Notes: a model not told the origin generated them from the sequence alone. DNA of 20,913 nt from Promethearchaeota archaeon (GCA_016930515.1 JAFGGO010000054.1:1-20913), one strand, 5' to 3'; positions 1-12,916 are shown, counted from the first letter of the stretch. Made by a program: numbers and translations.

Positions 1-421
1 CCCGATGGAACCAGAAATTCTAAAGATCGGACGAAAGGGTGAAGCAGGATGCGAGTTCATTCAAACGCAAGTCGTTTACGATCTCGATAGAACTATTGAA
101 TTCTTAACAGCGATCCAAAAATATAAAGTACCCGTGTTACTTGGCATCTTTCCCATGAAGAGCTACGCCATAGCTAAGGGATTTGACATGTTCGTGCCTG
201 GTGTTGATGTGCCAAAGGAAATCCTGGCGAAATGGAAGAGCGTAAAAACCGATATTACCGATAAGAAGCAACAACAAGAAGCTTACGACCAAATGAATTA
301 CAAATTTTTCAAGCCATTCATATCGGAACTTAAATCAAAAAAACTATTAGCTGGGATCCATTGCATGGCCGTTCATTATCCAAGAATCTTTCCAAAACTA
401 ATGGAGGTTATAAAAAGTTAG
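1..421 (+). CDS. metF: Methylenetetrahydrofolate reductase (MetF/MTHFR), C-terminal part; gene probably starts upstream of the window
   Basis: K-x2-AG-CEFIQTQVVYD, PVLLGIFP, VPGVDVP and GIHCM match the MTHFR TIM-barrel C-terminal motifs (K..AGAdFiiTQ..fD; gihl). The frame is open to the window edge, so the ATG at 5 is probably internal. Confidence 0.85.
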   Translation, partial: PMEPEILKIGRKGEAGCEFIQTQVVYDLDRTIEFLTAIQKYKVPVLLGIFPMKSYAIAKGFDMFVPGVDVPKEILAKWKSVKTDITDKKQQQEAYDQMNYKFFKPFISELKSKKLLAGIHCMAVHYPRIFPKLMEVIKS

Positions 422-511: not shown

Positions 512-1570
512 ATGAAACTCATACTATCAAAAAAGCAGTCTATATTTCTTAAATTAATCTTAATTTCAATATTGTTAATCATCTCTATCTTTTTGCTCCT
601 GTACCTTCAACTCGTTTTTAATCTAAATATTATCTTTTCTCATTTTTTTTACTTTCCAATAATAATTACATGCATTTGGTGGAAATATAAGGGCATGATT
701 CTGTCCTGTTTATTGTGCTTATTGCTCGTTTTTGTTCCTATTGGAGTTAGCATTAATTTCTTTTATTCTGTATTGATCGAAAATGCTCTAAGAAGTATTG
801 CAATGCTATCAATAGGTTTTGTCGTTTCGTTTCTAAGCAACCGCCTTTCAAGAGAGGAAGAGGTTCACAGGGCTTACGACGAGTTGTTTTTTTTTCGAGC
901 ATTATTAATTCACGATATGAACAATATCCTTCAAGGAATACGTTCTGCATCCGAATTGTATTTTCTATATAAGGATGACTCGAAGATAGAAGGAAATATC
1001 GACGAGTTGTTAGAAATAATCTTCAACCAATGTAATAAAGGATTTGAATTGATTTCTAATGTCAGAAAATTATCTGATTTGGAAATTCAAAAGCAAAAAT
1101 TAGAAACGGTAGAAGTGAAAACATGCATTCAAGACGCAATCAAATTCGTAAAAAATAATTATATTTCAAGAAATTTAGAAATCTCCGTTGAGCCAAGCAA
1201 TCGAGAGTTCCAAGTGAGAGCAAACGAGTTACTTTTTGATGTATTTACGAATATTCTGACTAATGCCGTGAAATACAACGATAATCCGATCGTAAAGGTA
1301 CTCGTAAAAATTCATAGGGTGTTGAGGAAAGATTCGTGGTTTGTTCGATTAGAATTTATCGATAATGGTATAGGAATTAGTGATAACATTAAGAAAATCA
1401 TTTTTATGAACGGAAAAAGTGAAGCAAAGCGTAGTAGAGGCATGGGATTCGGAATGTCTTTAGTAAAGAAGATAATAAGGTCATACAATGGGAAGATATG
1501 GATTGAAGACAATGTCGAAGGAGATTATTCAAAAGGCACAAATGTTAACTTGTTAATTCCCGAAAGTTGA
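512..1570 (+). CDS. Membrane-bound sensor histidine kinase (about 4 N-terminal TM helices, HisKA, HATPase_c)
   Basis: Hydrophobic N-terminal ~110 aa; H-box HDMNNILQGI, N-box NILTNAVKY, G1 DNGIGI, G2 GMGFGMSLVKKII. No response regulator in the window. Confidence 0.92.
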   Translation: MKLILSKKQSIFLKLILISILLIISIFLLLYLQLVFNLNIIFSHFFYFPIIITCIWWKYKGMILSCLLCLLLVFVPIGVSINFFYSVLIENALRSIAMLSIGFVVSFLSNRLSREEEVHRAYDELFFFRALLIHDMNNILQGIRSASELYFLYKDDSKIEGNIDELLEIIFNQCNKGFELISNVRKLSDLEIQKQKLETVEVKTCIQDAIKFVKNNYISRNLEISVEPSNREFQVRANELLFDVFTNILTNAVKYNDNPIVKVLVKIHRVLRKDSWFVRLEFIDNGIGISDNIKKIIFMNGKSEAKRSRGMGFGMSLVKKIIRSYNGKIWIEDNVEGDYSKGTNVNLLIPES

Positions 1571-4508: not shown

Positions 4509-5507
4509 TTATTTATTTAATAATTTTTTGGCAACACTTAAAGCGTAATTATAGTCAAATATCTTTAAACCATTTGTGTTTGCTGCTTCTTTTAAGATTT
4601 CAGCTTCTGAATTTGATTTGAGCCTGCCAAGCGCCAAGGCACCTATTCCAAAAATATTTGGATAGATTTCTTCATTGTAGTGTTTTGGTTTGATCCCATC
4701 AATACCATAGGGAGGAACCAAGTTGATATCAACGACTATTTTTTTACCTTCTAACTTCATCATCGCCTTTTCAGACAATATCTCAACACCTGCAGCAGCC
4801 AAAGACCAAAGTATATCTACATCTTTAGATAATTCCACTCTATCTTCCATACTTGGAGCAAAAACACCTCTAATTTTTGTAGCCTCATTTCCTGCTTCTG
4901 CGGTAAGTTCTTCTGCCAAATTATTAACAAATTCTTCGTTAGATTTTTCCCATGTTTCAATTAAAAACACATTGCACCCTATTTTTGCGCCTAAAATCGC
5001 TGCTATTCTCGCTACAGGACCTGCACCGAAAATTACTACCTTTTTTCCTTTTAAATCTTTCATTCCATGTAGTTTATCTGCAACATCTATCGTCATTGCA
5101 ACTACAGCCGATGCTGTCGTGTGAGAACCCCTCGGATCAATGATTACTGGACATTCAAAAGGAGGTACCAAGGATTTTACGACTTCTTTCGCAATCTTTT
5201 CTCCTTCTTTCACATCCGATCCTCCTATGAAAAAGGTTGTTGGTGCCCTGGGTTTTCGCGAGAAAGTAGCGTCTTGAACGAGCTTGGCAACTTGATCGGC
5301 GGTCATCTTACTAATGGGTATGACGATATCGAAACCTGCATCGTATGCCATATTGATGTCAAATGGGGAAGCGTTGTCGTCAGTATCGAAAAAGTAACAA
5401 ATCTTATCCGATAAATCCTTTTTCTTTATCACAATTGGCGTGAGCTCAATAATGGATTTTCGTCCTAAAATAGAGCGTACATCTTTTTCTATATCCTGAT
5501 CTTGCAT
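4509..5507 (-). CDS. mtdB: NAD(P)-dependent methylene-tetrahydromethanopterin dehydrogenase, MtdB/MtdA-like
   Basis: SPFDINMAYDAGFD, VQDATFSR, FIGG, VPPF...DPRGSHTTASAVVA match the MtdA/MtdB N-terminal domain. Rossmann VVIFGAGPVA; DINLVPPYGIDGI; GIGALALG. Strong AAGGAGG SD supports the ~33-aa N-terminal extension. Confidence 0.88.
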   Translation of the reverse strand: MQDQDIEKDVRSILGRKSIIELTPIVIKKKDLSDKICYFFDTDDNASPFDINMAYDAGFDIVIPISKMTADQVAKLVQDATFSRKPRAPTTFFIGGSDVKEGEKIAKEVVKSLVPPFECPVIIDPRGSHTTASAVVAMTIDVADKLHGMKDLKGKKVVIFGAGPVARIAAILGAKIGCNVFLIETWEKSNEEFVNNLAEELTAEAGNEATKIRGVFAPSMEDRVELSKDVDILWSLAAAGVEILSEKAMMKLEGKKIVVDINLVPPYGIDGIKPKHYNEEIYPNIFGIGALALGRLKSNSEAEILKEAANTNGLKIFDYNYALSVAKKLLNK

Positions 5508-5525
5508 AGTTTTATTCCTCCTTTT

Positions 5526-6263
5526 TTAAGAATTCTTTTCCTTTACGGTTATTTCCACATCTTTTTCTAATTCTTCGATTTCTTCGGTTTTTATCGTGCG
5601 CTTAATTTTTATCTTTTCGATATCGATACCCAAGTCGCTGCATAATTTTTCCATTCCATTGAAATGTCTTAAATCGCAAATGAATATTCCCTTTAACTTC
5701 GTCCCATCGACATCTTTAGCCATGTTTATGATATTCATCATCATCCACGCTTCTCTCACATTATATCGCACTTCATCTTCTTGGGCGGCATAGTCTCTTT
5801 CCAAGTATTCCTTCCAAATGACTAATTTTTGGAACCATTCATCTTCTTCGGGAATTTTTCCTTGTTTTGCGATTTCTTCCCTAATGCGTTTCTCTAACCT
5901 GACGACCGCCTTTCTATGTTCATCTAAAGCTGCAGACAAGTAATCTCGTGCGTTATCATCAATATCCACGCGAGAGAATGGTAATCCTTTAAGCTTGAAA
6001 AGTTCTTCCAATGGGTCGACTTGGTTTTGGGATTCGTCCCAATTCGTAGGTTTCTCTTCTGCACCAAAATGGGGCTTGTATTTTTCAACAAGATTATCAA
6101 TCACATCGAGGTATTCCTTGGAAATCAAATGCAAGTTCCAAACCAGGTCTTCTTTTATCTTCTTAGGAGCTTCAAACCACCAATCAACGGGAAACTCGCT
6201 TTCGACCATAATCAACTTTAAGTGCTTCTTCTTTAAAGGCTTTAATTCTAATACTTTTGGCAT
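5526..6263 (-). CDS. Hypothetical protein, probable TraB/Tiki/EreA/ChaN-like alpha/beta fold with helical-hairpin insert
   Basis: HLISKEYLDVIDNLVEKYKPHFGAEE, GLPFSRVD, REAWMMMNI and FICDLRHFNGM parallel the TraB motifs H.S....V...I....PD.V.VE, GIPv..iD, RD.yM..nL and vvG.gH..Gi. AAGGAGG SD upstream. Confidence 0.6.
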   Translation of the reverse strand: MPKVLELKPLKKKHLKLIMVESEFPVDWWFEAPKKIKEDLVWNLHLISKEYLDVIDNLVEKYKPHFGAEEKPTNWDESQNQVDPLEELFKLKGLPFSRVDIDDNARDYLSAALDEHRKAVVRLEKRIREEIAKQGKIPEEDEWFQKLVIWKEYLERDYAAQEDEVRYNVREAWMMMNIINMAKDVDGTKLKGIFICDLRHFNGMEKLCSDLGIDIEKIKIKRTIKTEEIEELEKDVEITVKEKNS

Positions 6264-6285
6264 TTTTATTCATCCTCCTTTTATG

Positions 6286-6900
6286 TTAAAATTCAATATT
6301 TATTATATTGTGTTTTTTCGTATATTGAACAACCCTTACATTTAATTCTCTAAGTTGCTCTGTTACTTCTGCACATATATCTTCACATATATCCTCTTGA
6401 ACTAAATGTAGAAACGCGACCTCTTCCGAACTAATAGTTTTTACTGCGTCGAGCATTTTTTTCACTATCCATTGGGGTCGTAATTTCAGCGTGATGTAAT
6501 TCTCCTTATCTTGAATTTCATCCCTTAGTACATCAATCCAATTTTTAAGACTTTCTGCTTTTAACGATTCTTTATCGCTCATTGATTCGAATTCTTCATA
6601 CAATTCGTTTAACAACTGTTCTTTCTCCACGATCTCTTGATACAGATATCCCATTGCGTATTCTGGAATATCTACCTGAAAATACATTATGCTTAAATCG
6701 TTCAAGGCTTTAGCAAGCTCGGATTCCTTGAATTCTTTTAAATCGACATTGAAATCAATTGTAACAAAGTCAATCTTTTTCTTTTCCAAGAATTTCTTGA
6801 GTTTAGCGATATCAAAATAGTGAAAATCATCTTTATTTTTCTTGGCGACATATGCGCAAATATGTTTTTTATGTATTGGTTTTAATTCCAGTACTTCCAT
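6286..6900 (-). CDS. Paralog of the 5526..6263 protein, apparently lacking its His/Glu residues
   Basis: Same N-terminus (VLELKP..KKH), (F/Y)..VDI...A..YL helical insert and R..W. Start moved from 6933 to ATG 6900 because a GGAGGTG SD lies at 6909-6915. Confidence 0.7.
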   Translation of the reverse strand: MEVLELKPIHKKHICAYVAKKNKDDFHYFDIAKLKKFLEKKKIDFVTIDFNVDLKEFKESELAKALNDLSIMYFQVDIPEYAMGYLYQEIVEKEQLLNELYEEFESMSDKESLKAESLKNWIDVLRDEIQDKENYITLKLRPQWIVKKMLDAVKTISSEEVAFLHLVQEDICEDICAEVTEQLRELNVRVVQYTKKHNIINIEF

Positions 6901-7098
6901 TTTTAATACACCTCCAAACTCGATTCCATTCAAGAATCTTATTCCTAAGTTACAAACGCTTTACTCGAAATTTAAAAAATTTGATAAGAAAATTTTTAAT
7001 CATTATGACAAAGAAATTTATCAAAATCCTTAATATAGTAATTTTATTTTTTACGAATATGGTCTTAAACACCAATAGATGCATAGAACAGCCTTTCA

Positions 7099-7151
7099 TA
7101 TATAAATCTCTATCGCGAACATTGTTCGATAGTATGGAATATATTTATATA
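7099..7151. promoter_or_regulatory. Back-to-back archaeal TATA boxes with a central palindrome (divergent promoter/operator)
   Basis: TTTATATA on the minus strand (7099-7106) and on the plus strand (7144-7151). CGAACA-T-TGTTCG at 7116-7128 is extended by CTAT/ATAG to 7110-7132. Confidence 0.5.
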
Positions 7152-7264: not shown

Positions 7265-9811
7265 ATGGATATCTATTCCGTATTGTCTCACGAATTCCGG
7301 AGAAAAATTTTATTGCTTCTTGAAAAAGAAGGATATGTCTTATATACCGATTTAATGGATAAATTGGGATTGGATCAAACAGGTCAATTGAACTTCCACT
7401 TGAGGAAACTTGGTTCTCTGATTAATAAAAACAAGAAATATTATTTTCTCACGGAAGATGGAAAGCGCATCTTAAAAATCTTGAATATCAATAAGCGAAT
7501 ATTATCAGGCGAAGAAGTGGATTATCTCAATTCCAAGGGAAGCGAAATTAATCGCGTTGGGGTGATTATTTGTAATTGTAATACAGAAATTTCTAATATG
7601 ATTGATATTATCTCTTTAGAAAAACACGTTTCTAAGTTAAGAAATGTTGTATCGGTTAAGATATTCGAAAATCTTTGTCAAGAAAAAAACTTAGAAAGAA
7701 TATCGAACTGGGTAAGAGAAAATTTTCTTAATAAGGTAGTTATAGCCGCCTGTTCTCCTAAAACACACCAACATATTTTTGAGCGAATTTTTAATGGAAT
7801 AATAGATCACACCAACATTGAAATTGCCAATATACGGGAACAATGCTGTTGGGTACATCACACGTCAATTGAACATAAGGGAGATCCTTTCATCGTATTG
7901 CAAAAAGCACAATTATTAATTGAAGCAGCAATTGAAAGAATATTGCTTCAAAAGGAAATAAAGATCAAACGAGTGGAAATCGAAAAGTCTTGTGCGATAT
8001 TAGGCGGGGGAATTGCAGGAATGACTGTTGCGCTAGATTTAGCAAGAGCAGGCATCAAGGTTTATCTAATTGAAAAAAGTCCTACCTTGGGGGGAATGGT
8101 TGCTAGGTGGCATAGAGTTCACGGAATAGGAGACTGTTCGATTTGTTTCATCTCCGAACTGGTAGGGGAAATTGTAAAAGAAAAAAACATTCAAATTCTT
8201 ACTAACACGGAAATAGAGGGTGTATCTGGAGAAGTAGGAAATTTTACATTAAATTTAATCAAGAAACCTCGATTTGTTGACGAAAAGAAATGTACGGGAT
8301 GTAAACAATGCATTGATGTGTGCGGAGTAAGAAAGCCAAACCAATACGAGTTCAATTTGACCAAGAGAAAGGTCATTTACTTCCCATTCCAAAATTGCTA
8401 TCCATATGTTCCGCTTATTGAGGAAGAAGACCTTAACGATTGTTTGAATTGTAGAATTTGTGAGCGAGCATGCATGAATAAGGCTATAAATCTTAACGAA
8501 AAACCAGAAAAATTACAGATTAAAGTTGGCGCAAAAGTAGTAGCTGTTGGAGCTGATATCTTTAAAGATTTAAAGGATTATAATTACGATCCCAATAGAG
8601 ATATTATTTCTTCTGCAGAATTCGAGCGAATGCTATCTTCGGACGGAATTACGGAAGGAAAAATCCTTAAGTTATCCGATTTAAAACCACCCGATACCAT
8701 TTCAATCATCCAAAACATAGGATCTACCCGAAACCATCAAGAACTTATAAATAATATCGTTCAAAAATATATTGGGTGTATTAAAGTAAAAAATCCTAAA
8801 TGTATTGTAAATATTTTTAGTAAAACTAGGCCACAAAACGAAGACATATCCCTATTTAAATCAACAGATCCAAGATTTCATTATGTTGAAGATATAAAAA
8901 TTAACAGAAAAAAGGATCAAAATATTATTATATCGAATTCTATCGAATATCAGAGTGATTTGATAATTTTAAATGTCGATTTGATTCCAAACAAGGACTT
9001 AAGGCTCTTGAGAAAAACCATGGATTTTACTTTAAACGATTCGGGGTTTATGAGCGAAGATACCTTAGCTTCGGGAATTTATGGTGCTGGTACCATTCTT
9101 GGACCGCTTAATTACTATGAAACGGTAAATTCAGCACATAAAGTTGCACTCAATATTATTTCTCTTTTTTCAAACGATTACATACTTGCGGAATTCACCG
9201 GAATTGAAATTAATGAGAATGCGTGTGGTTTATGCTCTCTTTGCGTAAAGGCATGTCCTTATAACGCCCTTTCGATAGAAAATGAAAAACTCTCAATTGA
9301 TAAATTTAAATGTAAAGGATGTGGGACTTGCGTGAGCGTATGTCCTACTAACGCAATTGACATGAACATCGATACTACGGACAAAATCCTAAAATCGATC
9401 GAAATTTTATCTAAATTCAATAAAAAACCAAAAATTTTAGCCTTTTGTTGTCGATCCTGCGGTTACGCAGCTGCGGACGATGCAGGCTTGAAAAAATTAT
9501 ACTATCATCCAAATGTATTCGTAGTTCGAGTTCCTTGTACTGGTCGAGTCGACGCAAATTTCATATTAAAAGCTTTAGAATGTGGATTTGATGGTGTTTT
9601 GATAGTTGGATGTAGAAAAGATGCTTGTAGATATATAGACGGTACTCAAAAAGTTCAAAATAAAATTCATATCCTGAAAAAAGTCTTAGGTCCGAGGTTG
9701 GGTCGTAAGATAATACTTAAAAATTTAAACGCCGTAGAGGGAAATAAATTTTCAGAGATATGCAATAAATTTTATAATATACTAAAAGTGGAAAGCGAAT
9801 ATGAAGCTTAA
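7265..9811 (+). CDS. Fusion: ArsR-like winged HTH + HdrA-like flavoprotein (degenerate TrxR-domain Fe-S site) + ferredoxin domains + MvhD
   Basis: aa1-~75 LSHEFRRKILLLL...LNFHLRKL...YFLTEDGKR (wHTH). HdrA N-domain RVGVIICNC, AACSPKTH, NIREQCCWVH; FAD motif GGGIAG. Ferredoxin motifs CTGCKQCIDVC, CLNCRICERAC, CGLCSLCVKACP, CKGCGTCVSVCP. MvhD motifs FCCRSCGYAAAD, RVPCTGRV, GCRKDACRY. Confidence 0.9.
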   Translation: MDIYSVLSHEFRRKILLLLEKEGYVLYTDLMDKLGLDQTGQLNFHLRKLGSLINKNKKYYFLTEDGKRILKILNINKRILSGEEVDYLNSKGSEINRVGVIICNCNTEISNMIDIISLEKHVSKLRNVVSVKIFENLCQEKNLERISNWVRENFLNKVVIAACSPKTHQHIFERIFNGIIDHTNIEIANIREQCCWVHHTSIEHKGDPFIVLQKAQLLIEAAIERILLQKEIKIKRVEIEKSCAILGGGIAGMTVALDLARAGIKVYLIEKSPTLGGMVARWHRVHGIGDCSICFISELVGEIVKEKNIQILTNTEIEGVSGEVGNFTLNLIKKPRFVDEKKCTGCKQCIDVCGVRKPNQYEFNLTKRKVIYFPFQNCYPYVPLIEEEDLNDCLNCRICERACMNKAINLNEKPEKLQIKVGAKVVAVGADIFKDLKDYNYDPNRDIISSAEFERMLSSDGITEGKILKLSDLKPPDTISIIQNIGSTRNHQELINNIVQKYIGCIKVKNPKCIVNIFSKTRPQNEDISLFKSTDPRFHYVEDIKINRKKDQNIIISNSIEYQSDLIILNVDLIPNKDLRLLRKTMDFTLNDSGFMSEDTLASGIYGAGTILGPLNYYETVNSAHKVALNIISLFSNDYILAEFTGIEINENACGLCSLCVKACPYNALSIENEKLSIDKFKCKGCGTCVSVCPTNAIDMNIDTTDKILKSIEILSKFNKKPKILAFCCRSCGYAAADDAGLKKLYYHPNVFVVRVPCTGRVDANFILKALECGFDGVLIVGCRKDACRYIDGTQKVQNKIHILKKVLGPRLGRKIILKNLNAVEGNKFSEICNKFYNILKVESEYEA

Positions 9812-10562
9812 GTTTCTCATTACCTCACTAACATCTTGTAGTGGTTGCGTATCATCTTTGATTTCGCTCGATTTTTTCTCACAATTTTTGGAAAAGACGG
9901 AATTATGCTATTTCCCTTTTCTGGAAGATAATCAATTGATTGACGATCAAGATTACGATATCGCTTTAATTGAGGGATGCGTTTCAACAGATTCACAGAT
10001 TGAGTTCTTGAAGAAAATCAGAAAAAACTCAAAAAAGATAATTGCACTGGGTACATGTGCGGCATTTGGAGGAATTTTGAGTTTATCAAAGGAGCGATTT
10101 GCTATTCCTTTACAAGACGTGGTAGAGATAAATGGAATCATCCCTGGATGTCCACCACCTACTAAATTATTTGGAAATTGCTTGATTAAACTTCTCGAAC
10201 GAAAAGAAATAGAGCTCCCTAAAAAAAATTTGTGTGATGGTTGTCCAAATAAAACGGATTTTATTCTGAGTAAGGAAACCATAATTAACAAAATAATACC
10301 CGATAATAAAGACTTATTCGAGGAGGGAGAAAATTGTTTCTTGAAAAAAGGCGTATTATGTCTCGGTCCAATCACGAGACAAGGGTGTGATTACGAATGT
10401 ATAAAGGCAGGAATGCCATGTGAAGGGTGTATGGGTCCCGTTTCTAAAGATATCACATCCAATATCATTAATTTCCTGAGTCTTGCTAATGTTTCCAAGG
10501 ATTTAAAAAAGTACAAGGGATTGTATTATCGATTTTCTAAACCAAAAATTTGGAGATCTTGA
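9801..10562 (+). CDS. mvhG: [NiFe]-hydrogenase small subunit, group 3 (MvhG-like)
   Basis: SCSGC, EG, GTCAAFGG, PGCPP, CDGC, CFLKKGVLCLGPITRQGCDYEC, PCEGCMGP. Overlaps the upstream fusion gene by 11 nt. Confidence 0.9.
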   Translation: MKLKFLITSLTSCSGCVSSLISLDFFSQFLEKTELCYFPFLEDNQLIDDQDYDIALIEGCVSTDSQIEFLKKIRKNSKKIIALGTCAAFGGILSLSKERFAIPLQDVVEINGIIPGCPPPTKLFGNCLIKLLERKEIELPKKNLCDGCPNKTDFILSKETIINKIIPDNKDLFEEGENCFLKKGVLCLGPITRQGCDYECIKAGMPCEGCMGPVSKDITSNIINFLSLANVSKDLKKYKGLYYRFSKPKIWRS

Positions 10563-10563
10563 C

Positions 10564-11865
10564 ATGATTAAAACTGTAGAGTTATGCACCAGAATTGAAG
10601 GACACGGAGAAATAAGCGTTTATACAAGGGACGATCAATTGCTCCAAGCAGAATTCAAGCTTCCAATTTATAGGGGATTCGAGACCATGTTAAAAGGAAA
10701 GAAAATATTAGATGTGCCTCGTATCGTCTCTAGAATATGTGGGCTTTGTCACGCATCTCAAACTATCGTGAGTTGTAAGGTCATAGAAAACATGTACAAT
10801 ATCAAACCTACTCAACAAGCAATAGTACTTCGACGAATTTTAATGACTGCTGAAATGCTTAAATCCCACACAACCCATTTTTTCTTCCATTCCTTTCCCG
10901 ATTTATTGAAATTGTTCAAAATATCTAATAAAATATTAGATTTAAATCAATTAATCGCTTACGATCGCATTCTTACTAAGAATATATTTGAACTCATCAA
11001 AATTGGAGATGATATAAACAAGATGCTCGGAAGTAGGTCGGTGCATCTCGTTAATGTACTCCCCGGAGGGATTATATTTAAACCAAGCACTCATTTTTCA
11101 AGAAATTTTCAAACTCTTCTTTCGAAAGGAATCGGCGCTCTCAAGGAAATTCTCGAATTTTTTATCAAGCAATTTTCGAACCTAGACCCCCCTGCTTCTT
11201 TTTCGATCCCAAAAGTTAAGAATTTAGCTTTAAATAATAAAAAAATCTATGATAGATATGAAGGTATCATGACAATAAAAGAGAGTCGCACAAAATACGA
11301 GGATTTTCCAATCGAGAACTTCCTCGAACATTTTGAAAGGGATGTTGGTTTGAGGGGGATAAATACCCTTAGTGAATCGAAAACAGCAATTTTAGTAGGT
11401 CCTATTGCCCGTAGAAATATAGTGGAAAACTACGGCGTTCAGGAATGTAATAGTTACCTTGACCTTTTTGGAAAGGAATGGAAGAAAAACCTTTTATTTT
11501 CGAATTACTTGCGTTTAATTGAGATGTATTCTGAAATGAAAGCAATCAACCAGTATCTTGAAACAACAAGATTGGAATCGAACTTACCCTTACCTGATTT
11601 TCGTTCCATCAAGAATTTCGAAGGTATCTCTGCCGTGGAAGCACCTAGAGGTAGTCTATTACATTATTATAAGATCAACGAAAGAAATGTCGTTGAGGAC
11701 GCTAAATTCTTCATTGCAACGGAGTTTAACCTTCCCATCATCAATAAAATGATCACCAAGTACGCTCGCAGCATATACGAGACGAAAGACATTTCAGAAG
11801 TGAAAAAGGAAATCCAACCAATGATAAGAGCTTTTGACCCTTGCATCTCGTGTGCCACCCATTAA
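10564..11865 (+). CDS. mvhA: [NiFe]-hydrogenase large subunit, group 3c-like (MvhA-like), with no C-terminal extension
   Basis: TRIEGH, RGFE, L1 RICGLCHASQ, EAPRGSLLHYY, L2 DPCISCATH followed directly by stop. Starts 1 nt after mvhG. Confidence 0.9.
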   Translation: MIKTVELCTRIEGHGEISVYTRDDQLLQAEFKLPIYRGFETMLKGKKILDVPRIVSRICGLCHASQTIVSCKVIENMYNIKPTQQAIVLRRILMTAEMLKSHTTHFFFHSFPDLLKLFKISNKILDLNQLIAYDRILTKNIFELIKIGDDINKMLGSRSVHLVNVLPGGIIFKPSTHFSRNFQTLLSKGIGALKEILEFFIKQFSNLDPPASFSIPKVKNLALNNKKIYDRYEGIMTIKESRTKYEDFPIENFLEHFERDVGLRGINTLSESKTAILVGPIARRNIVENYGVQECNSYLDLFGKEWKKNLLFSNYLRLIEMYSEMKAINQYLETTRLESNLPLPDFRSIKNFEGISAVEAPRGSLLHYYKINERNVVEDAKFFIATEFNLPIINKMITKYARSIYETKDISEVKKEIQPMIRAFDPCISCATH

Positions 11866-11887
11866 AAACAGTTTGGAATGCAAATAC

Positions 11888-12916
11888 ATGAGCGGAAAAG
11901 ATTCAGAAAGCAGGAAATACGATTTTAAGTACGAGCAAATCGAACCAGAACAGCTATGCGAAGTGTTCTTGTTTTATTTCGACGAATCCTTAGGTCAAAT
12001 CTTGCTTTTAAAAAGTCCTGAGGAAAGACACACGGACGAGGAGACAATGCGCATACTTAAAGTTCATTCGATCTGGTTTCTGGACATAAGCGATAAAACT
12101 TCGCTTGATCGCGTCGATTTAGAATATGGCATGAAGATGTATTTCGCAAAGAAGTTTTTAGTTCCCTCCTACCGAGAGAAAAGAAGAGCAGGATCAAAAG
12201 AATCTAAAAACGAAACGATCGTGCTCATTCTCGCCTTACCCATAGAAATGGACATTTTTGGTGCGGCATTGGTAAAGAGCACGACAGAAAAGATGATCAA
12301 GCACTTCAAACACCATTTCACACGCTTGATCGAAGCGAATATTGCGAGTTTAGACTTGATAAAAACGCCTAAAACAAGAGAATTGTTCGAGGAGGGGCAA
12401 CGAATAAAAAAGCGAATGAGCGCACTCATAAAAAACTCATGTTCTCAATATTTTAAATCAGTAATTCAAAAGACGGATACCTCCACTTTAAAGATCCAAA
12501 AAGCCATTTCGTACCTTTCCCTGCGTGGTGTCCCAATTGAACACATAACTAAAAAAGGGGATAAAGTAAGCTTTTCAAACATGAAATTGTTTGAAACTGA
12601 GCTAAAATCCTCTACAAATTCCGTTCAAAAAAGTGCTTTTAGCATTATGGATAAGTCTATCGTTGAAGAAACGCAGGAATTAGAAATCATAACGAAAAAT
12701 AATTCTCAAAACCACTACCATAACATCCATGTGAAGATCACTTCTTTAACGGAATTTTTTGAGCAACCAATACTTTTTAATACCATCGAGGATTGGTTAC
12801 CTGAAGAAGAATTGGTATTCAGCGTCCCTAAATCGATTGGAAATCAAGATATGATTTTTTGTTTATTGGATCAGAATCGAAAGGTCTTATTTCAGCAAAG
12901 GATCAAACCCAATTAA
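11888..12916 (+). CDS. Hypothetical protein with probable N-terminal longin/uDENN-like domain and C-terminal beta-rich domain
   Basis: VFLFYFDESLGQILLLKSP fits the longin/uDENN beta-hairpin pattern (h-h-FD...G.....P); later F.VPS...RRAG....TIVLILAL. Start taken as ATG 11888, since the TTG at 11834 overlaps mvhA. Confidence 0.5.
   Translation: MSGKDSESRKYDFKYEQIEPEQLCEVFLFYFDESLGQILLLKSPEERHTDEETMRILKVHSIWFLDISDKTSLDRVDLEYGMKMYFAKKFLVPSYREKRRAGSKESKNETIVLILALPIEMDIFGAALVKSTTEKMIKHFKHHFTRLIEANIASLDLIKTPKTRELFEEGQRIKKRMSALIKNSCSQYFKSVIQKTDTSTLKIQKAISYLSLRGVPIEHITKKGDKVSFSNMKLFETELKSSTNSVQKSAFSIMDKSIVEETQELEIITKNNSQNHYHNIHVKITSLTEFFEQPILFNTIEDWLPEEELVFSVPKSIGNQDMIFCLLDQNRKVLFQQRIKPN

Follow-up and report, generated by a model that had tools for sequence, protein, structure and literature searches.

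What is a winged helix of the ArsR type, a fold best known from transcriptional repressors, doing at the N-terminus of a protein that belongs to a hydrogenase complex, and if it binds DNA, where would it do so and what would control it? The question is raised by a stretch of 20,913 nucleotides (nt) from a Promethearchaeota archaeon (GCA_016930515.1, JAFGGO010000054.1:1-20913), the whole of which is referred to here as the window and whose positions are counted from its first letter. Within it three closely packed genes encode a single polypeptide composed of a winged helix, HdrA and MvhD, followed by the small and the large subunit of a [NiFe]-hydrogenase. H2 exchange is central to models of Asgard physiology and of the syntrophy leading to eukaryotes, and to our knowledge no H2 or redox sensor has been described in Asgard archaea, with archaeal H2 sensing in general being unresolved.

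On sequence grounds the locus is a derived group-3c-like [NiFe]-hydrogenase complex, made up of an MvhA-like protein, an MvhG-like protein and an HdrA-MvhD fusion that carries an ArsR-type winged helix. The best reading of this combination, to which we would give about an even chance, is a self-regulating hydrogenase of the kind known as a trigger enzyme. DNA binding by the winged helix, the redox dependence of that binding and the reaction of the enzyme are the parts of this reading that we infer.

The winged-helix fusion

The gene for the fusion overlaps the small-subunit gene by 11 nt and a gap of 1 nt separates the latter from the large-subunit gene, so that the open reading frames (ORFs), the overlap and the gap are exactly as a first-pass annotation, made from the sequence alone, had described them. 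Public annotations name the fusion either a 'hydrogenase iron-sulfur subunit' or an 'FAD-dependent oxidoreductase' (FAD, flavin adenine dinucleotide). Conservation across related loci falls along the operon, from about 67% for the fusion to about 59% for the small subunit and about 47% for the large one.

Is the N-terminal domain what it appears to be? Residues 2-71 of the fusion match Pfam DUF7347 (E 5e-11), and deep members of the fusion family also match Pfam HTH_20 and HTH_5/ArsR. An AlphaFold2 model of the N-terminal 92 amino acids (aa), built from an alignment of 19 relatives, has a predicted local distance difference test score (pLDDT) of 89.5 and is ordered as three helices, the recognition helix, a beta-hairpin wing and a long helix. 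The top PDB matches that Foldseek returns for this model are all ArsR/SmtB repressors, namely CadC, NolR, HlyU, AntR, SmtB and ArsR (template-modelling scores 0.66-0.71, root-mean-square deviations 1.7-2.0 Å, 25-29% identity, probability 1.0), with MarR and HxlR relatives ranking after them, while a sequence profile of the domain retrieves the ArsR-like protein 1y0u of A. fulgidus. When the full-length fusion is modelled by AlphaFold2 the mean pLDDT is 82, the winged helix itself being confident. The N-terminal domain is thus a true winged helix of the ArsR kind. The earlier description of an ArsR-like winged helix fused in frame agrees with the DUF7347 match, with the ArsR/SmtB fold and with a frame that is uninterrupted across assemblies.

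Could the fusion nevertheless be an artefact of assembly or gene calling, or its likeness to a helix-turn-helix a matter of chance? Nothing was found in favour of this explanation, which is vanishingly improbable. The public gene call starts 6 codons later (window 7265-7285) and gives a protein of 842 aa; the ATG at 7265 is supported because the alignment of homologues keeps MDIYS.... A search with residues 1-96, confined to proteins of similar overall length, yielded 142 clusters; each has about 848 aa and contains DUF7347, HdrA and FlpD, and the metagenome-assembled genomes from which they come are labelled Lokiarchaeota/Promethearchaeota, Hod-, Hermod-, Thor-, Hel- and Odinarchaeota. The fusion was also found at 72 loci of species-representative genomes, complete chromosomes being among the assemblies, and across the 73 loci formed by these and the window it is followed by the small subunit in 69 and by the large subunit in 67, with equally tight spacing. 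An uninterrupted frame in 142 clusters from independent assemblies, and at 72 species-level loci from many studies, rules out an artefact of a single assembly or of gene calling as well as chance, and the confident domain model with its match to ArsR folds argues in the same direction. The search of Asgard genomes for this architecture and synteny, which the first-pass annotation had put forward as a check, thus found that both recur.

The fusion also reaches well beyond the close relatives of the window. In a survey of the phylum, in which residues 1-199 of the fusion were sought in 400 genomes, this N-terminus was found in the majority of genomes in the window's family, in further families belonging to its order and class, and in four more distant families at 39-58% identity; it is absent from single-contig genomes of 4.4 and 6.0 Mb, where HdrA occurs without a winged helix. 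Exhaustive HMMER searches brought up still deeper members (P0125, P0126 and P0128, at 34-40% identity) that start with the winged helix and keep the same gene order. The relatives that come next are of the HdrA2 type, have a length of about 790 aa and begin at the equivalent of residue 97. Judged by this distribution, the fusion is real and ancient.

Fundamental to any role in DNA binding is the recognition helix, which covers residues 39-52 with the motif TGQLNFHL[KR]KL and is followed by a basic beta-hairpin wing at residues 53-62. Among 19-25 sequences, with domain identity down to 28%, T39, G40, N43, H45, L46, Y60, L62 and G66 are invariant, and the polar residues of the recognition helix and the basic wing remain unchanged from the main clade to members at 28-37% domain identity. 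These residues bear upon a rival explanation, a doubtful one in our view, in which the winged helix has a structural role or docks a protein partner, without binding DNA, and the operator-like palindrome described below is read by a separately encoded regulator. The linker and the domain are 63-92% identical among the 142 clusters, a level seldom seen in regulators but usual in interfaces. On the other hand, the polar recognition helix and the basic wing, together with a net charge that a count from the sequence puts at about +6, are as in DNA-binding ArsR proteins, and the other DUF7347 proteins of the same genome have recognition helices that differ. The linker keeps G82, G92, S93 and R97 despite its low pLDDT, and a homodimer prediction for the isolated winged helix (score 0.25) fell below the mark and counts neither way.

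One of those other DUF7347 proteins is itself an enzyme. On contig C139, at about 34610-36370 (locus L022:1462-3225), DUF7347 is followed by an ATP-cone and then by an anaerobic ribonucleotide reductase (NrdD) domain, again with a different recognition helix. The case suggests a habit in this lineage of fusing DUF7347-type DNA-binding domains to enzymes; equally, the presence of the same domain type on NrdD lends something to the docking explanation, as the domain may be a general add-on.

The conserved palindrome

Among the k-mers of 65 upstream regions the words TTGAYAA and TTRTCAA are enriched, occurring in 33-42 sequences as against 5-16 in shuffles, and they join as a palindrome of 20 base pairs (bp), TTGAYAA-N6-TTRTCAA. 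Of 66 loci, 54 have a palindrome in the 1.6 kb ahead of the fusion gene, where the genome-wide rate predicts about 0.5 loci, with the proviso that related genomes are not independent observations. In the window's own genome (4.0 Mb) the site is rare, with 17 matches at 13/14 or better, compared with about 7 expected from Markov shuffles; one of the 17 is perfect and eight are intergenic.

The placement of the site is sharp. Of the 107 palindromes in 818 kb of related loci none falls inside the 4.6-kb coding region of the operon. Where the operon faces a divergent one, as in the window, palindromes are found at -200 to -400 of the fusion gene, and most loci of this layout also keep the 24-nt spacing to an extra half-site; in the other layout they sit at -1300 to -1520, just upstream of a same-strand FrhB-like first gene. 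Further palindromes lie upstream of homologues of the 215-aa protein encoded in the divergent operon. These homologues occur in 4/5 fusion-bearing genomes as against 0/5 fusion-lacking genomes, and every homologue locus examined has palindromes nearby, even at 4-11 kb from the hydrogenase operon; they are clearly upstream of the gene in three loci and, in two, upstream if the gene is on the minus strand. The palindrome-marked genes are mainly the operon itself and the neighbouring operon, and contig C150, which holds a canonical hdrABC and a second hydrogenase, has no site at 13/14 or better.

In the deep clades (39-58% identity) a core, GAYAA-N6-TTRTC, is found near the fusion gene against a background of 0.035 per kb, at -57 to -63 in 5/6 loci of one family, at -144 in 3/5 of another, at -337 in 2/2 and at -98 in 1. 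Within one genus, a perfect site stands about 80-100 nt ahead of the fusion gene in each of three genomes that carry it, and three genomes that lack the fusion hold no perfect site. Three loci of relatives without the winged helix show no palindrome, the promoter of the hydrogenase-linked one lying outside the DNA examined. Perfect palindromes occur in 81/134 genomes of the window's family and are enriched over a reversed-pattern control. Their number per genome, about 1.1 with and about 0.55 without the fusion, is a rough hand count in which the contrast is blurred and the support weak, unlike the clean contrast of three against three within one genus; the fusion-lacking class may include fusions missed in incomplete genomes.

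What do these sites say about the protein that reads them? Because the palindrome has stayed with the operon through rearrangements of its promoter and through deep divergence, the regulator is probably encoded by the operon itself; and because the invariant recognition helix can be read as matching the invariant palindrome, the winged helix would make the complex a regulator of its own operon and of its neighbour. A docking domain with a separate regulator sits less easily with a palindrome that has accompanied the operon under both promoter layouts and down to clades at 39% identity, and no other regulator gene is conserved beside the operon in the synteny of the 73 loci. That explanation does draw on the palindromes of some genomes without a detected fusion, which are weighed below with the other difficulties.

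Several other elements were encountered along the way. The only perfect palindrome of the genome (C122:10330-10349) lies between genes for GAPDH and a polyferredoxin, and a 13/14 match (C27:62342-62361) separates two divergent genes, one for an HdrC-like ferredoxin and the other for a thioredoxin; it is possible that both mark further targets. The stretch at 1906-2146 in the window, between cdc48 and an 84-aa gene, repeats the promoter element of 6975-7024 (TGATAAGAA..TTTTAATCATT..ACAAA) and has several TTGAYAA/TTGTCAA half-sites at other spacings, related loci having full palindromes at the matching place, -5100 to -5300. A palindrome containing GC at about 7110-7132, between two TATA-like boxes, had earlier been a candidate operator and was set aside as a conserved site since its exact motif recurs in 1/65 upstream regions; a similar element, ATCGAA...TTCGAT, is found only in three close relatives, and the palindrome may be a second, lineage-specific site. 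The deep member L110 has a variant palindrome, TAGACAA-N6-TTGTCTA, twice, and co-variation of recognition helix and operator is not relied on here, this being a single case more than 5 kb from the gene.

Electron routes and the function of the complex

How much of the canonical electron route remains in a complex that carries such a domain? The HdrA module consists of an N-terminal cluster domain, an FAD/thioredoxin-reductase-like domain, and inserted and C-terminal ferredoxin domains with 2x[4Fe-4S] each. The NCBIfam model for HdrA-MvhD fusions (HdrA2, NF040770) matches residues 97-841 at 561 bits, under its cut-off of 1100; within the Pfam matches the FAD/NAD Rossmann fold begins near residue 243 and is followed by Fer4 domains. 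Against sequences of the PDB, HdrA (8rvu_a/5odc_A) aligns with residues 94-714 and MvhD (5odc_D) with residues 721-841, and FlpD/MvhD (PF02662) covers residues 724-840 (E 7.7e-33). The ligand positions are strictly maintained: the Cys of the N-terminal cluster (103/105/138/163), the GxGxxG of the flavin domain (247-252), the DCSxC pair (291/294), the Cys of both 2x[4Fe-4S] domains (343-353, 393-403, 654-664 and 683-693) and those of MvhD (C729, C732, C758, C783 and C788) are all invariant.

The exception is a [4Fe-4S] site in the thioredoxin-reductase domain, where all four Cys of QCVGSR...CSxxCC are gone from the window protein and from the whole main clade, while the motif survives in HdrA2-type relatives, in the canonical HdrA that the same genome encodes and in the deep winged-helix members P0125, P0126 and P0128. 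In the canonical enzyme the high-potential route runs from FAD through cluster HA4 to HdrBC, HA3 being located in the mobile arm or the C-terminus, and HA5/HA6 towards ferredoxin (PMC12350162, PMC13580544). By elimination, and not from coordinates, the lost cluster would be HA4, and because its ligands are lost the main clade could not feed HdrBC in the canonical way.

The hydrogenase subunits are similarly close to, and removed from, the canonical pattern. The small subunit matches MvhG (5odc_E) best and has 12 Cys at cluster-like spacing, and the large subunit matches MvhA (5odc_F, E 1e-48) best, with the motifs RICGLC and DPCISCATH and with other matches that also belong to group 3 (the [NiFe] large subunit 7t2r_D and sulfhydrogenase). 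Scores against NCBIfam models are low, with VhuA at 139.8 bits against a cut-off of 800 and VhuG at 128.6 bits against 450. The large subunit stops at the His of DPCISCATH and has no C-terminal extension of the kind that an endopeptidase cleaves from group 3c large subunits, as in 63/64 homologous loci, which end at the His of DPCxxCxxH; canonical MvhA (5odc_F) continues for 25 aa beyond the aligned His. Regulatory hydrogenases have a large subunit without this extension, which is also typically missing from Ech/CooH-type enzymes. Gas-channel residues were considered as marks of a sensor and dropped, canonical MvhA also being bulky between the two N-terminal Cys.

Metagenome contig L137 carries two tandem modules of HdrA-MvhD, small subunit and large subunit without a winged helix and with an extension of 24 aa, and is likely to represent the ancestral form. 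The deep winged-helix members keep the cluster ligands, and L110 among them has a short extension of 7 aa, from which the likely order is that the winged helix was gained first and that the cluster and the extension were lost afterwards in the main Asgard clade.

The partners that a canonical complex would need are found elsewhere. No hdrB lies within 6 kb in any of the 73 loci, which within ±6 kb yield one distant HdrC-like gene in one locus, and Pfam scans of the window ORFs tested (all those of at least 100 aa outside the operon, plus two shorter ones) found neither hdrB/hdrC (CCG) nor a HycI-type protease, in agreement with the first-pass annotation. That annotation had also asked whether a separate canonical locus exists, and one does: contig C150 holds hdrA (667 aa), hdrB and hdrC, a free-standing mvhD that adjoins formylmethanofuran/formate-dehydrogenase-like genes and, at the contig end (C150:1-1652), a second [NiFe] hydrogenase whose small subunit has 461 aa and whose large subunit breaks off after about 90 aa; this hydrogenase is not resolved in the assembly because the end sequence recurs at C74:1-147. 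A HycI-like protease gene lies on contig C30.

Does the complex, then, still work as an enzyme, or only as a sensor? The first-pass annotation had proposed that the H2 wire was repurposed as a sensor, and in its strict form, a dedicated one-component H2 sensor in which the wire does nothing other than report H2 through the redox state of flavin and Fe-S clusters and so gate DNA binding, we hold this to be improbable. What stands of the proposal is the loss of the HA4-assigned ligands in the main clade, which takes away the canonical high-potential exit to HdrBC (PMC12350162), together with a large subunit that lacks the extension as in regulatory hydrogenases, the consistent absence of an adjacent hdrB and the conserved operator-like palindrome; the separate canonical hdrABC, mvhD and second hydrogenase in the genome, and the position of the large subunit as the least conserved of the three proteins, point the same way. 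The pure sensor is less well supported. Strict conservation extends to five [4Fe-4S] sites, to the FAD site and to the two ferredoxin-like exit domains, which is far more than a sensor needs, and an FrhB-like flavin/Fe-S oxidoreductase gene, directly upstream on the same strand, is co-operonic in 22 loci from 22 species. A sensor should moreover control metabolic targets, whereas the palindrome marks the operon and its neighbour, with none on C150. The missing extension is typical of Ech/CooH-type enzymes too, and because the deep winged-helix members keep both cluster ligands and a short extension, the DNA-binding domain would predate the sensor-like losses.

A trigger enzyme is the likelier of the two, because marks are found at essentially no genes other than the operon and its neighbour, and because the redox machinery is nearly intact, often with an FrhB-like partner. 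In such an enzyme two winged helices, paired through the HdrA dimer (HdrA being dimeric in solved complexes), would bind the 20-bp site TTGAYAA-N6-TTRTCAA in the promoter regions of two operons, the one that encodes the complex and the divergent one beside it. Binding would follow the state of the enzyme, set either by the oxidation or reduction of FAD and the Fe-S clusters, and so by the availability of H2 or ferredoxin, or by the engagement of a partner. Like PutA and other trigger enzymes, it would in this manner adjust how much of itself is made. The complex would remain a working H2-metabolising enzyme, albeit not a canonical Mvh-Hdr one, with H2 probably coupled to ferredoxin and, in many species, also to the FrhB-like module.

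A number of observations weigh against a self-regulating enzyme. The winged helix is tethered by a linker of low model confidence (residues 84-93, pLDDT <50), in two deep clades that have the fusion the 3 kb upstream contain no such palindrome, and the loss of the HA4-assigned cluster leaves the reaction of the enzyme undefined. Some genomes of the family in which no fusion was detected also hold perfect palindromes, at a rough average of about 0.55 per genome compared with about 0.3 in the reversed-pattern control and with three in one of them (G169), for which reason another factor may read the site. There is, finally, a precedent for a winged helix as a protein-protein interface, which also favours the docking explanation: in BamF, the MvhD-like adaptor subunit of class II benzoyl-CoA reductase, a related bifurcating complex, a winged-helix motif forms the interface to BamI (bioRxiv 10.64898/2026.04.10.717634).

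The module offers a concrete and testable candidate for archaeal H2 or redox sensing, in the form of a protein domain, a 20-bp site and a marked gene set, and it occurs in the majority of the family's genomes as well as in several further Asgard classes. Even taken conservatively it would represent a new type of group-3 hydrogenase, with the HdrBC branch lost and a maturation that does without the C-terminal extension, and metabolic reconstructions that count such genes as canonical MvhADG-HdrABC would need revision. As a self-regulating enzyme it would extend the trigger-enzyme principle to hydrogenases and to flavin-based bifurcation modules. That it is a true one-component H2 sensor, in which the [NiFe] site, the Fe-S wire and the flavin are covalently coupled to the DNA-binding domain and H2 partial pressure directly sets promoter occupancy in Asgard archaea, is unlikely, though not far-fetched; were it true, it would be without precedent both as an archaeal H2 sensor and as a hydrogenase acting in its own right as a transcription factor.

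Genomic surroundings and known systems

The coordinates of the operon, of its domains and sites and of the adjoining genes are collected in Table 1.

Table 1. Features of the hydrogenase operon and its flanks, in window coordinates.
Feature	Position	Strand	Basis
Winged helix + HdrA + MvhD fusion gene	7265..9811	+	848 aa; ORF, Pfam/NCBIfam and PDB matches, AlphaFold2 model
ArsR/SmtB-type winged helix, residues 1-80	7265..7504	+	DUF7347 match; fold match to CadC/NolR/HlyU/SmtB
Linker between winged helix and HdrA, residues 81-96	7505..7552	+	pLDDT <50 at residues 84-93 of the full-length model
HdrA module, residues 97-717	7553..9415	+	NF040770 HdrA2 match; invariant Cys
Degenerate [4Fe-4S] site of the thioredoxin-reductase domain	8705..8770	+	HMMER against HdrA 8rvu_a; MAFFT alignment
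MvhD/FlpD [2Fe-2S] domain, residues 721-841	9425..9787	+	PF02662 and 5odc_D matches
MvhG-like [NiFe]-hydrogenase small-subunit gene	9801..10562	+	253 aa; PF01058, VhuG and 5odc_E matches
MvhA-like [NiFe]-hydrogenase large-subunit gene	10564..11865	+	433 aa; PF00374 and 5odc_F matches
Candidate operator ATGACAA-AGAAAT-TTATCAA	7005..7024	.	13/14 match to TTGAYAA-N6-TTRTCAA
Extra half-site TTGATAA	6981..6987	.	starts 24 nt upstream of the left arm of the palindrome
Divergent operon: paralogue pair of 215/245 aa + MtdB-like dehydrogenase	4509..6900	-	synteny in 32-36/73 loci; Mpt_N match
343-aa ORF, possible fourth operon gene	11885..12916	+	kept downstream in 16/73 loci

About 20 nt past the stop of the large-subunit gene begins the ORF of 343 aa, which has no Pfam or NCBIfam match and may be a fourth member of the operon in part of the family. 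On the other side, the divergent operon is followed by a Cdc48 gene; its paralogue pair (5526-6933, minus strand) belongs to no Pfam or NCBIfam family, both proteins beginning ...VLELKP..KKH. Farther out the window has an MTHFR-like fragment at 2-421 (+) and a HATPase_c protein, a histidine-kinase-type ATPase, at 512-1570 (+), which together with the MtdB-like gene give the neighbourhood a flavour of C1 metabolism. The HATPase_c gene lies 5.7 kb from the operon, and no kinase is conserved in the operon across the 73 loci. Elsewhere in the genome three MvhD/FlpD matches (C122:2404-2772, C46:5445-5813 and C75:3048-3413) contain two in-frame TGA codons each, which may encode selenocysteine, and at locus L043 an HdrA gene likewise appears split, into ORFs of 101 and 472 aa.

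How does the complex compare with those that are known? Among its close relatives is MvhADG-HdrABC, the electron-bifurcating hydrogenase/heterodisulfide reductase of methanogens (5odc, 9sw2), with which it shares its best matches, to MvhA, MvhG, HdrA and MvhD, and the Cys patterns for the [NiFe] site, the MvhG clusters, the [2Fe-2S] cluster of MvhD, the FAD and five HdrA clusters. It departs from that system in the added winged helix, in the fusion of MvhD to HdrA, in an operon without hdrBC, in the lost HA4-assigned ligands, in a large subunit without the extension and in NCBIfam scores that are far under the cut-offs. The HdrA2-type fusions (NF040770) have the same joining of HdrA and MvhD, and L137 has in addition the same three-gene order, but these proteins start at about residue 97 without a winged helix and keep QCVGSR...CSxxCC, and the large subunit of L137 has its 24-aa extension. 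The BamF precedent differs in that the winged helix is located elsewhere in the protein and no DNA role has been proposed for it. Full-text searches of the literature turned up HdrA-MvhD fusions and Asgard group-3c hydrogenases, but nothing on a DNA-binding domain or winged helix on HdrA; the earlier statement that no archaeal hydrogenase-transcription-factor of such design was known to have been described is in keeping with this, no published description having been found.

With the regulatory hydrogenases of group 2b, HoxBC/HupUV and their kinases HoxJ/HupT, the complex has in common a large subunit without the extension and a proposed coupling of H2 to transcription. Those systems, however, rely upon a separate histidine kinase and response regulator and have no HdrA/flavin module, whereas here the best matches are to group 3c MvhA and the DNA-binding-type domain is on the complex itself. 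The ArsR/SmtB repressors (CadC 1u2w, NolR 4omz, HlyU 4k2e, SqrR 6o8o and 1y0u) provide the likeness for that domain, in the fold with its flanking helices and in the xHL-type motif of the recognition helix; they are typically dimers on palindromic operators, and here a conserved palindrome accompanies the operon. They are also stand-alone proteins, about 100 aa long, in which Cys/His sites of their own detect metals or persulfide, unlike the present domain, which forms the N-terminus of an 848-aa redox protein and in which a metal-sensing site was not identified.

The closest functional analogy to the fusion is with trigger enzymes that have fused DNA-binding domains, such as PutA, a flavoenzyme with a ribbon-helix-helix, BirA and NadR. 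In these an active redox or metabolic enzyme with an N-terminal DNA-binding domain represses its own operon according to the state of its cofactor or substrate. They belong to unrelated families, none is a hydrogenase or an HdrA and all are bacterial. The enzyme probably controls its own genes by hydrogen or redox state, which would be a design not hitherto described, and the chance is substantial that the complex belongs to a category of its own, a hydrogenase that is a transcription factor. In its construction the fusion joins two kinds of system that are each known, the group-3 hydrogenase/HdrA modules and the enzyme-fused regulators.

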